In this document: one piece after another, positions 44,150 through 51,964 of the stretch | How the letters are laid out: each line of letters starts with the position of its first letter | How positions within the stretch are numbered: the first letter of the stretch is position 1 | Source: an uncultured Anaerolineales bacterium | GTDB lineage: Bacteria > Chloroflexota > Anaerolineae > Anaerolineales > E44-bin32 | DNA length: 64,000 bases | Direction of reading: 5' to 3' | Assembly: GCA_965195195.1 (NCBI GenBank) | Contig: CBDAFF010000010.1 | Location: 41,630 to 105,629, forward strand | Program-made: the position numbers and the translations under genes | Notes under the pieces: model-generated | Seen by the model: only the letters and a program-made list of their open reading frames with translations | Databases searched by the model: none | What the model was told of the DNA's origin: nothing

Positions 44150-44554
44150 TTAGTATTTCACGACAGGAGGGAGTTTTTTTGCTTGGGCGACCCAGGATTT
44201 TACTTGTTTAGACGAAGGAAGCCTGCGAACGAGGGCTTTCTTCTCATTAATCTCAACGAGTGCATCGAAAAGTTTCTCTGGCGCACGATGACGGAGCTCT
44301 TTCACTGTATCCACACCAGCTTCTTCGAGGAGGTCGCTATATTCCTCTCCTATTCCTTTTACTCGCATAAGGTCAGCGAGATTAACCCACTCAAGGACAA
44401 GCTTCTCCGAGATTCCGGTCTCCTCAGCCAGATCCTTTCGCCCTCGTTTATCGGCACCAATCTGGAGGAGCCGACCTGTAGATCGAACTCCAACCGCGTG
44501 GAGTTTCTTTGCGAACTTTGGCCCAATGCCTTCGATGTCAGCGATCTTCGCCAT
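44150..44554 (-). CDS. DUF4332 helix-hairpin-helix protein
   Basis: IADIEGIGPK and ADLMRVKGIGEEYSDLLEEAGVDTVKEL; RBS GGAGGAG. Confidence 0.88.
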   Translation of the reverse strand: MAKIADIEGIGPKFAKKLHAVGVRSTGRLLQIGADKRGRKDLAEETGISEKLVLEWVNLADLMRVKGIGEEYSDLLEEAGVDTVKELRHRAPEKLFDALVEINEKKALVRRLPSSKQVKSWVAQAKKLPPVVKY

Positions 44555-44884
44555 ACAATACTCCTCCTGTGTTTTGTATTTAATGACCCGATGCATTCTA
44601 AAAGCGTATCGGGTATTGGTCAATGTCTCTCTGGGCCTTATTTTCCCTAAACGTTGTCAACAATAGCTGGGAGGAGTAGAACCTGGGAACTGGTTGACGC
44701 CGCCTAGGTCCTTATCTATACTGACTAGTGTGCTTGTTTTCTTTGAAGCACCACTTGTCGGATTCTAAGATTAAACATCAAGAGCGAGCACGACGTGGCG
44801 TTGGTCAACACTAAGCAGCAGACAAATGTTATCCGAACCTTGGACTAGATTGGATGGAGGCATTCCCTGGCCATAGGAATTGGG

Positions 44885-46048: not shown

Positions 46049-50323
<4,275 letters not shown>

Positions 50324-50350: not shown

Positions 50351-50380
50351 TTGACAGGTTGATAACCCACTCGTTATAAT
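50351..50380 (+). promoter_or_regulatory. Sigma70 promoter of rplU-rpmA-rpmE
   Basis: TTGACA-18 bp-TATAAT followed by a structured leader of about 120 nt. Confidence 0.8.
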
Positions 50381-50503: not shown

Positions 50504-51049
50504 ATGAAGTACGCAATCGTAAGTTCCGGCGGTAAACAATATATCGCTCGGGAAGGGGAGCCCATAGAAGTCGATCGGCTGCAGCTGGATATAGGCAAAC
50601 CGGTTGAGTTTAAGGAAGTGCTCCTTGCAGTAGATGGCTCTACGATTAAAGTCGGCACGCCTTTGATCAAAGGGGCTTCAGTTAAAGGCAAGGTGCTCGA
50701 CCAGGTAAAAGCCAAGAAGATCATCGTCTTCAAATATATCCCGAAGGAACGTTATCGTCGCAAGAAGGGTCACCGGCAGCAATATACGCGAGTGTCCATC
50801 GATAAAATTGTGCTTCCTTCAGCTGAAAAGAAAGCGACGAGCAAAAAAGAAGCTGATAAAGCGGAAAAACCCCCCGCGAAGAAGACCACGAAGAAGGCTG
50901 CTTCGACGGCGAAGAAAAGCACAGCTAAGGTTTCCAAAAAGGAAACCGGAACCAGCAAGGAAAAGAAGGCAACCAAAGCTAAGTCAACTTCAGCAAAGAC
51001 TGGTTCCAAAACTTCTTCTACCGGTAAAAAATCTACGGAAAAAAAATAG
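50504..51049 (+). CDS. rplU: 50S ribosomal protein L21 with a Lys/Ala/Thr-rich C-terminal tail
   Basis: YAIVSSGGKQY...GHRQQYT core, then about 75 aa of low-complexity basic tail. Confidence 0.96.
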   Translation: MKYAIVSSGGKQYIAREGEPIEVDRLQLDIGKPVEFKEVLLAVDGSTIKVGTPLIKGASVKGKVLDQVKAKKIIVFKYIPKERYRRKKGHRQQYTRVSIDKIVLPSAEKKATSKKEADKAEKPPAKKTTKKAASTAKKSTAKVSKKETGTSKEKKATKAKSTSAKTGSKTSSTGKKSTEKK

Positions 51050-51064
51050 TGTAGGGATAAGAGA

Positions 51065-51319
51065 ATGGCACATAAAAAAGGCGGCGGTTCAGTCCGTAAC
51101 GGACGTGACAGTCACTCCAAGCGACTGGGTGTGAAAAAATTTGGCGGTGAGCGTGTGCGATCCGGAAATATTCTGGTGCGCCAACGTGGTACCCGCATTC
51201 ACCCTGGGCTGAACGTAAAACGTGGCAAAGATGACACATTGTATGCTGTCGCAGAAGGGCTAGTTCACTTCGATTTCGTTCGCAAAGGACGCAAACGAGT
51301 CAACGTAGTCACAGAATAA
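51065..51319 (+). CDS. rpmA: 50S ribosomal protein L27
   Basis: [30 protein letters not shown]. Confidence 0.98.
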
Positions 51320-51421: not shown

Positions 51422-51895
51422 ATGAAAGAAAATATCCATCCGAAGTATTTCCCCAACACGACGGTCGTTTGTGTCTGTGGCAACACATGGCAAACAGGAT
51501 CTACGGTTGAATCGATTCACACTGATGTCTGCTCAAAATGTCACCCATTTTACACGGGTGAGCAGCGCATTGTTGATACGGAAGGGCAAGTTGATCGCTT
51601 CTACAAGAAGCTCGAAGCGCGGCAGCAGCATATTGAGGATGCAGTATCCCGTGAAGCAGCGAAAACATCACCAGACCTTCTCATTGAAGAATTGGAGCTT
51701 AGCGCTCGTGCGGAGTCGTCACTTGCAAAAGCGGGCATCCTGGATGTCGGCAAAGCGATTGAGATGATGGCAGAAGGCGATCAGGCGTTGCTTGAAATCG
51801 ATGGTTTTGGGCGAAAGAGTCTTGCGGATCTTAAGCGAGCCTTAAAAAGGCGTGGTTTTGAATTGCCAGAGGCTGCACTAGAACCGCAGGTTTAG
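51422..51895 (+). CDS. rpmE: 50S ribosomal protein L31 (Zn type) fused to an RNAP alpha-CTD-like domain
   Basis: MKENIHPKY, CVC...CSKCHPFYTG, VDRF, then IEELELSAR...LLEIDGFGRKSL. Confidence 0.93.
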   Translation: MKENIHPKYFPNTTVVCVCGNTWQTGSTVESIHTDVCSKCHPFYTGEQRIVDTEGQVDRFYKKLEARQQHIEDAVSREAAKTSPDLLIEELELSARAESSLAKAGILDVGKAIEMMAEGDQALLEIDGFGRKSLADLKRALKRRGFELPEAALEPQV

Positions 51896-51937
51896 AATTC
51901 CAAACTTGCTCAAATAATAGGCTGGTGTAAACTCAGG

Positions 51938-51964
51938 GCAGGTGTTAAAGCACCTGCTCATTTT
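51938..51964 (+). terminator. Putative terminator after rpmE
   Basis: GCAGGTG-TTAAAG-CACCTGC followed by TCATTTT. Confidence 0.55.

Follow-up and report, generated by a model that had tools for sequence, protein, structure and literature searches.

Within the stretch of DNA analysed here (the window, 64,000 nucleotides from an uncultured Anaerolineales bacterium) lies a gene, rpmE, in which the ribosomal protein bL31 is joined to a domain of the kind carried by the alpha subunit of RNA polymerase (RNAP). The fused protein is almost certainly the only detected bL31 of the organism; it is of the Zn type, its C-terminal helix is lengthened and it ends in a folded (HhH)2 domain of the alpha-subunit C-terminal domain (alpha-CTD) type. 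The fusion is old, and it is under purifying selection in the order to which the window belongs, which public records label Anaerolineales, as well as in some further families of the Anaerolineae. A ribosomal protein here bears the docking-type domain of RNAP, and it does so in a whole order of bacteria that are common in the environment. Our preferred account of its function, to which we assign a probability of about 0.35, is that the domain may be an adaptor, tethered to the ribosome, for binding the transcription elongation complex, with NusA the likeliest partner.

Both parts of the protein are recognised by curated family models. The Pfam model for bL31 (Ribosomal_L31, PF01197, 65 positions) matches residues 1-64 with 98.4 bits (E 2.8e-28), and that for the alpha-CTD (RNA_pol_A_CTD, PF03118) matches residues 81-142 over model positions 8-66 of 67 with 39.6 bits (E 4.4e-10), the curated cut-offs being 27 and 23.8 bits, respectively. 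In NCBIfam the L31 equivalogs TIGR00105 and NF000612 score 89.9 and 98.4 bits (cut-offs 38.35 and 70), and the C-terminal ends of rpoA models are matched as well. Among PDB sequences, those of bL31 chains align with residues 1-68 (E 3e-22) and those of RpoA with residues 72-150 (E about 3e-5). The Zn-binding pattern is C17-x-C19 ... C37-x-x-C40, and each Cys is kept in at least 90% of 54 aligned sequences. This alignment (A1) combines 49 genome loci with 5 database representatives; it omits six near-identical or duplicate loci (L019, L020, L024, L031, L034 and L092) and four that the motif filter missed (L077, L079, L081 and L094), which are also fused. An earlier note on this DNA, made from the sequence alone, had read the gene as a fusion with no stop between the parts, comprising a Zn-type bL31 over the first 66 or so residues and an alpha-CTD at about 51680-51865, that is residues 87-148. 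These readings are borne out. It had also named Pfam models against which the extension could be judged: RNA_pol_A_CTD is matched, and a Pfam search with HHH_5 and NusA models found none on the fused protein at E <= 1.

The predicted structure agrees with the family assignment. An AlphaFold2 model of the full-length protein, built on a 54-row alignment, has a mean predicted local distance difference test score (pLDDT) of 80.9 and comprises the bL31 beta-sheet, a helix over residues 54-81 and then five short helices, with low pLDDT from residue 152 on. The long helix begins in the usual C-terminal part of bL31, which it lengthens by about 16 residues. When the CTD is modelled alone (residues 80-157, pLDDT 84), every match listed by Foldseek in the PDB is an RNAP alpha-CTD or alpha subunit, including 7vpd_S (the best, TMt 0.89, root-mean-square deviation 1.3 A), 1doq and 1lb2_B. 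The E-values, from 1.5e-3 to 5e-2, are modest, as is usual for a domain of some 60 residues. With the full-length model the top 50 matches are bL31 chains only, as the bL31 half dominates. The domain is 42% identical to the CTD of the genome's own RpoA over 59 aa (E 4e-14) and 25% identical to a domain of its NusA. By model score and predicted fold it belongs to the alpha-CTD family. Since HHH_5 is not matched, the identities are 42% versus 25% and the clan is a separate one in the tree described later in the text, the domain is closer to the alpha-CTD than to the AR-type domains of NusA or to HHH_5. Counted from the sequence, the net charge of the CTD in the window is negative.

Membership of the family does not extend to all of its best-known residues. 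In E. coli, R265, N268, G296, K298 and S299 constitute the DNA-contact (‘265’) determinant of the alpha-CTD, and several of these residues form the face that meets DNA or the AR2 domain of NusA. BLASTP comparison with RpoA of E. coli K-12 (NC_000913.3) pairs E92 with E261, R96 with R265, S99 with N268, G130 with G296, K132 with K298 and S133 with S299. The equivalences proposed from the window alone, with R265, G296, K298 and S299 kept and N268 changed to Ser, are therefore right for this protein, which reads R, S, G, K, S across the determinant, but retention of the DNA-contact residues proves not to be a trait of the family. Among the 54 bL31 CTDs the R265 position is R in 50 and K in 4, and the G296 position (G130) is kept in 52. 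At the N268 position there is E in 15, A in 12, D in 11, N in 7 and K in 5, so that it is acidic in 26; the K298 position has K in 43, S in 6 and A in 4, and the S299 position S in 34 and A in 14. The family as a whole does not keep the full determinant, whereas the CTDs of 30 RpoA proteins from the order are near-invariant and keep all five residues in 30 of 30. The pair equivalent to K271 and R272 is likewise K and R in every one of these RpoA proteins, and position 102 of bL31 is A in 20, K in 17 and E in 7.

Conservation of another kind marks the bL31 CTDs. Thirteen of their columns in A1 are at least 90% conserved (L93, R96, L101, A104, G119, L124, G128, G130, L134, K138, L141, R142 and G145). 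G128 is present in 53 of 54, where RpoA has N, and position 139 is K in 44 and R in 8, where most RpoA proteins have an acidic residue or Q. The basic residues K138 and R142 are each kept in 51, and P149 of the terminal ‘LPE’ in 46. As it is not attached to RpoA and lacks the conserved DNA-contact set, the CTD on bL31 is a paralogue of the alpha-CTD and not ‘the’ alpha-CTD. The median ratio of non-synonymous to synonymous substitution rates (dN/dS; Nei-Gojobori, 243 pairs) is 0.16 for the bL31 core, 0.46 for the helix and connector (residues 61-86) and 0.42 for the CTD, values to be read with dS near saturation and pairs that are not independent. A quick maximum-likelihood tree of 116 alpha-CTD-like domains, unrooted, of 73 columns, with most forks unresolved and giving neither donor nor direction, places the bL31 CTDs in one clan (Shimodaira-Hasegawa approximate likelihood ratio test, SH-aLRT, 84) and the RpoA CTDs in another (98), with the NusA domains apart. 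Such a tree is compatible with a single fusion event.

The distribution of the fusion was followed in samples of genomes, and related genomes within these are not independent. In a sample of the phylum it is found in 30 of 301 genomes, namely that of the window (G000), all 27 other genomes of its order, and two (G031 and G250) that belong to two other orders of Anaerolineae. It was not found in the remaining 271 genomes of this sample, where there is the bL31 part only or, in two, no match of any kind; five unpublished genomes in the sample are all unfused. A sample of the order has it in 39 of 41 genomes and in all 18 families drawn, and the two genomes without it are 87% and 88% complete. 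In a sample of the class it is found in 22 of 151 genomes (families f1, f2, f4, f8, f95, f98, f105, f122, f127 and f128). Among the best 80 loci in species-representative genomes, 23 are fully fused, all with titles of Chloroflexota lineage and one of them an Ardenticatenaceae record. The best 120 protein clusters, drawn from several sources, combine PF01197 with PF03118 without exception; they measure 153-165 aa, are 70-100% identical to the protein, and come from metagenome-assembled genomes (MAGs) of Anaerolineales, Anaerolineae or Chloroflexota, where the source annotation is ‘ribosomal protein L31’ only. One fused subgroup of 148-149 aa (L011:995-1438 (-) of G250; L166, the Ardenticatenaceae record; and P0158) has lost all four Zn-binding Cys. 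Long bL31 matches in Kerfeldbacteria (L219), Gemmatimonadetes (L197) and Patescibacteria (L211 and L218) were rejected as fusions, being basic helical tails that a domain hidden Markov model (HMM) search finds to lack the CTD, and L182, at first taken for a long match outside the Chloroflexota, is just a bL31 of 68 aa.

The genome of the window amounts to 3.39 Mb in 95 contigs and is 92.5% complete. The fused rpmE is its single match to PF01197, and the search with this model detected neither an unfused second bL31 nor a type B paralogue in the 92.5% covered. Together with the gene order described below, this is an indirect sign that the fused protein serves as the bL31 of the cell. PF03118 has three matches in the genome: RpoA, the fused bL31 and the C-terminus of NusA. 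RpoA, of 323 aa, has its own CTD (70.8 bits). In the order sample RpoA is unbroken in 40 of 41 genomes and in 39 of these reaches at least position 313 of 323; in the 41st it lies in two pieces on two contigs. RNAP therefore still has a CTD of its own. Relatives and rpoA were among the places to which the earlier note had looked for a check, and the outcome in both, with the fusion kept in the order and in part of the class and RpoA retaining its CTD, is in line with its reading.

Features of rpmE and of the adjoining genes (positions in the window)
Feature	Position	Strand	Basis or remark
rpmE, fused bL31-alphaCTD protein	51422..51895	+	ATG start, 157 aa plus stop, no internal stop
bL31 domain, residues 1-66, Zn type (C17, C19, C37, C40)	51422..51619	+	Pfam, NCBIfam, PDB chains
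Predicted continuous helix, residues 54-81	51581..51664	+	AlphaFold2 model
Short connector, residues 82-86, TSPDL (family consensus SPxRP)	51665..51679	+	Alignment A1
RNA polymerase alpha-CTD-type (HhH)2 domain, residues 87-146	51680..51859	+	PF03118, identity to own RpoA CTD, Foldseek
C-terminal tail, residues 147-157, ‘LPE’ motif	51860..51892	+	Alignment, AlphaFold2
Terminator-like hairpin, 10 pairs, plus T-run, directly 3' of rpmE	51936..51959	+	Consensus scan only
rpmA (bL27)	51065..51319	+	
rplU (bL21, 181 aa), first gene of the bL21-bL27-bL31 cluster	50504..51049	+	
Promoter-like site TTGACA-18-TATAAT, 12/12 sigma-70 consensus, 28 nt past rpoC stop, before rplU	50351..50380	+	Consensus scan only

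The order of genes in the window is rpoC (46049-50323), rplU, rpmA, the fused rpmE, tdk, hpt and a gene of the CCA/poly(A)-polymerase family. It had been supposed that the fused gene stands right after a stand-alone rpoC and that this would suit a link with transcription. This part of the earlier reading has to be given up: the genes for bL21 and bL27 intervene, there is a promoter-like site after rpoC, and rpmE has a terminator-like hairpin behind it. Comparison with 27 related loci, over about 6 kb each side (less at contig ends), finds bL21-bL27-bL31 kept in all 27 and tdk next in 24, and rpoC within that distance in none. The fused rpmE sits in its own bL21-bL27-bL31 unit and, with rpoC at 0 of 27 loci versus 27 of 27 for the cluster, the rpoC neighbourhood is not part of the feature; as support for coupling it was rejected on these counts and on the promoter-like site. 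The bL21 protein of the window has its L21 domain at residues 3-102, followed by a tail of about 80 residues rich in Lys, Ala, Thr and Ser and without a Pfam domain.

The module is not confined to bL31. In the genome's own NusA (L003:1105-2979 (-), contig C16, 625 aa) the KH domains are followed by a helical stretch and this in turn by an alpha-CTD-like (HhH)2 domain, which scores 20.9 bits in the protein, below the cut-off, and 24.7 bits in a six-frame search. Beyond this domain the protein continues with a long low-complexity region of acidic character and then a poly-Lys run, and it closes with a conserved motif (consensus xEYDPDxG...KRKR...W; alignment A3). This long form of NusA is found in 39 of the 41 order genomes and also in many other families of the class, and in one genome (G121) its alpha-CTD-like domain reaches 40.8 bits. 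In other families of the class the module is on bS16: a protein of 195 aa in G424 (L228:415-999 (-)) combines PF00886 with PF03118, the latter at 43 bits. Both domains are also present in 119 of the best 120 database clusters retrieved with it. Full-length proteins of this kind are found in 4 of the 151 class genomes, none of them among the 22 with fused bL31. A bS16 of 323 aa in G290 (L139:1489-2457 (-)) has a long linker rich in Ala, Glu and Lys and a weak CTD match (18.3 bits), and genomes of family f9 have a longer bS16 with a weaker CTD match (18.3 bits). The partial beta' subunit of G455 (L225:2-2815 (-)) contains an alpha-CTD-like insert at residues 727-783 in Rpb1 domain 3 (36.1 bits), and eight further class genomes have putative alpha-CTD-like matches in open frames of 1502-1560 aa; the domain search found no such match in the rpoC of the window. 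In G395 a protein of 158 aa (L227:492-965 (-)) has an alpha-CTD-like domain (29.8 bits) together with a DNA-binding domain of HTH_3 type.

There is a second, independent bL31 fusion with another HhH domain. It carries HHH_5/DUF4332 (P0141, 240 aa; metagenomes), and by our own count PF01197 and DUF4332 occur together in 30 of the best 120 clusters. A stand-alone DUF4332/HHH_5 protein of 157 aa (145.7 bits), 50% identical to the C-terminal half of P0141, is encoded in the window at 44153..44623 (-), 7 kb upstream of rpmE. Tails without a recognised domain are common on related proteins. Many bL31 outside the fused clade (L005-L010, L229 and P0145-P0247) have charged helical or low-complexity tails of 35 to more than 200 residues, and the long forms P0155, P0162, P0185, P0247, P0166, P0171, P0188, P0202 and P0151 were rejected as fusions, as their tails are of low complexity and lack a confident second Pfam domain; P0151 has only a weak, sub-threshold match to Rtf2. 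The bS16 of the genome itself (L141:919-1698 (-), contig C29, 260 aa) has a strongly acidic, repetitive tail of about 170 residues and no CTD.

What might an alpha-CTD do on bL31? In the sections of PMC10931766 that we draw upon, the N-terminal domain of bL31 binds uL5 in the 50S subunit's central protuberance and its C-terminal part binds uS13 in the 30S head, and the fused protein is probably a bridge protein with the same two contacts. Because bL31 spans the central protuberance and uS13, the alpha-CTD-like module would stand above the 30S head at the end of a short arm, made of the helix and five-residue connector, at a few tens of angstroms from uS13. There it could serve as an adaptor that imitates the alpha-CTD of RNAP and docks on a component of the elongation complex, most likely NusA, which would help to keep the lead ribosome in place at RNAP. 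A precedent comes from E. coli, as presented in the portions of a preprint on coupled complexes that bear on these contacts (bioRxiv 10.1101/2020.03.01.972380). NusA, which offers two sites to the alpha-CTDs, lies between RNAP and the ribosome. It holds the 30S body (uS2 and uS5), and the head (uS3 and uS10) is held by RNAP and NusG; in the transcription-translation complex TTC-B, alpha-CTD I lies on AR2 of NusA and alpha-CTD II on NusA-N. For the fused protein, we infer the position on the ribosome, the partner and the effect on coupling. The idea of coupling gains indirect support from the presence in the class of alpha-CTD-like domains on NusA, bS16 and beta' as well. Since lineages of the class have the module on NusA, on subunits of RNAP and on either of two proteins of the ribosome, a shared docking function within the transcription-translation assembly would be the most economical single explanation.

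Several observations weigh against an adaptor for the elongation complex. The residues of the DNA/AR2 face at N268, K298 and S299 are not conserved across the bL31 family, unlike those of the order's RpoA CTDs, and the CTD evolves much faster than both the bL31 core and the near-invariant CTD of RpoA. The vicinity of rpoC is not a conserved arrangement. Geometry presents a further difficulty. The protein uS13 is some 50-70 A from uS3 and uS10, where RNAP and NusG dock in E. coli, and for such a distance the reach of the arm appears borderline. Nor do the fused bL31 and the long NusA always travel together. By our count, 13 of the 22 class genomes with the fusion and 25 of the 129 without it have a match to the NusA extension within an open frame of 550 aa or more, and in the class sample the fused families f105 and f128 yielded none. 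In the phylum sample the fusion and the long NusA extension share the same 29 genomes other than that of the window; as specific evidence for a partnership this co-occurrence was rejected, given that the class sample has the extension in at least 10 unfused families and leaves it undetected in 2 fused ones. Prediction of a complex between the bL31 CTD (alignment A2) and the C-terminal region of NusA (A3) returned a score of 0.00 in two runs without controls, which speaks neither for nor against a contact. Finally, long extensions are a general habit of the ribosomal proteins of this lineage, since others in the genome are also long-tailed (bL21 with a Lys-rich and bS16 with an acidic tail).

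This habit is in keeping with a structural role within the ribosome, in which the CTD docks on its own ribosome, at the 30S head or the central protuberance (on rRNA or on uS13, uS19 or uL5), and reinforces or tunes bridge B1 and the movement of the head. Most extensions of ribosomal proteins do reinforce or tune the structure of the ribosome. The domain hangs by its short arm (helix 54-81 and five residues) from a protein of bridge B1, R96, K138, K139 and R142, all basic and conserved, are of a kind suited to contacts with RNA, and the variant with a non-Zn bL31 core (L011 and L166) keeps the CTD. Many bL31 of the Chloroflexota have charged helical tails without a CTD, and other ribosomal proteins of the genome carry tails. 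We nevertheless think this rather doubtful. The same module occurs on bS16, a protein of the 30S body, behind a long low-complexity linker, on NusA and inside beta', and docking at a specific site on the ribosome would leave these unexplained. (HhH)2 domains, moreover, are mainly known as binders of DNA or protein.

A second alternative is a general tether to nucleic acid. The (HhH)2 domain would bind the backbone of DNA or mRNA unspecifically, keeping translating ribosomes near their template or the nucleoid, or handling mRNA near the head. The basic residue at the R265 position and the frequent retention of G296 and K298 would fit such binding, as would the existence of an independent bL31 fusion to DUF4332/HHH_5, another domain of HhH type, and of the stand-alone DUF4332 gene in the same window. 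The N268 position, however, is acidic in nearly half of the family and N in only seven proteins, the K271/R272-equivalent pair is weakened relative to RpoA, and the net charge of the window's domain is negative. We regard the tether as unlikely.

The domain might also have little or no function of its own, as a tolerated appendage, or might do no more than regulate the mRNA of its own operon, as bL31 does in E. coli. The relaxed evolution of the CTD relative to the core is what an appendage would display, and in the relevant part of PMC10931766 bL31 is an autogenous repressor in gamma-proteobacteria. Persistence of the fusion across an order with no fewer than 18 families and in several families besides, thirteen strongly conserved columns, a dN/dS well below 1 and the failure to find an unfused second copy of bL31 in the genome make this very improbable. 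An artefact of assembly or gene calling (a chimeric contig, a missed stop or a frameshift) can be dismissed, as the fused frame is open across independent assemblies, in the 39 order genomes, the 23 public MAG loci and every one of the 120 clusters counted above.

An adaptor that docks on the elongation complex is the account that we prefer, at the modest probability given at the outset. A bolder version of it would be a coupling system peculiar to the Anaerolineae. Modules on alpha, on beta' in some families, on NusA, and on bL31 or bS16 according to lineage could then form a network of like-with-like docking by which the elongation complex is physically bound to the lead ribosome, in addition to the NusG-uS10 bridge or in its place. 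This is a speculative extension, and we think it improbable.

Beyond E. coli and a handful of model bacteria, the way in which ribosomes are held at RNAP is still to be settled. Should the module indeed bind the elongation complex, it would be a ribosome-borne coupling factor, a kind without description in the literature searched; should it pack on the ribosome instead, it would represent an unusual recruitment of a transcription domain as a part of the ribosome. Ribosome-borne alpha-CTDs would in any event surprise specialists in transcription-translation coupling. No paper describing the bL31-alphaCTD, bS16-alphaCTD or bL31-DUF4332 fusions was found in the literature searched, outside which lie most subscription journals and supplements. 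The combination of PF01197 with PF03118 is already visible in precomputed Pfam annotations, and public annotation hides the feature, the proteins being named only ‘ribosomal protein L31’ or ‘S16’.

The fused protein can be set beside several known systems. With canonical bL31, whether type A (Zn) or type B, it shares an N-terminal part of 64-69 residues that matches the L31 models from end to end, Cys motif included, but it has about 90 extra residues with a folded domain. With the alpha-CTD of RNAP (PF03118) it shares the HMM family, the predicted fold, a flexible connector and the equivalents of R265 and G296, but the domain is carried by a ribosomal protein rather than by the N-terminal domain of alpha, forms a separate clan, evolves much faster and does not conserve N268, K298 and S299. 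The AR1 and AR2 domains of NusA, and the contact of alpha-CTD with AR2 in TTC-B of E. coli, offer the same class of fold, and the organism's own NusA also ends in an alpha-CTD-like (HhH)2; the bL31 CTD nevertheless has the low identity to the NusA domain given earlier and a clan of its own, and a contact between the two is hypothetical. The fusions bS16-alphaCTD and bL31-DUF4332 are similar in design, each a ribosomal protein of the Chloroflexota with a C-terminal module of HhH type, but they involve either another ribosomal protein, from the 30S body, or another HhH family, and other lineages. In manner of working a parallel, drawn from the preprint cited above, would be the KOW domain of NusG or RfaH that bridges RNAP to uS10. 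Here too a small domain on a flexible tether would connect ribosome and RNAP at the 30S head, hypothetically in the case of bL31, but NusG and RfaH are tethered from the side of RNAP through a KOW fold, whereas the bL31 CTD is tethered from the side of the ribosome and has an (HhH)2 fold.

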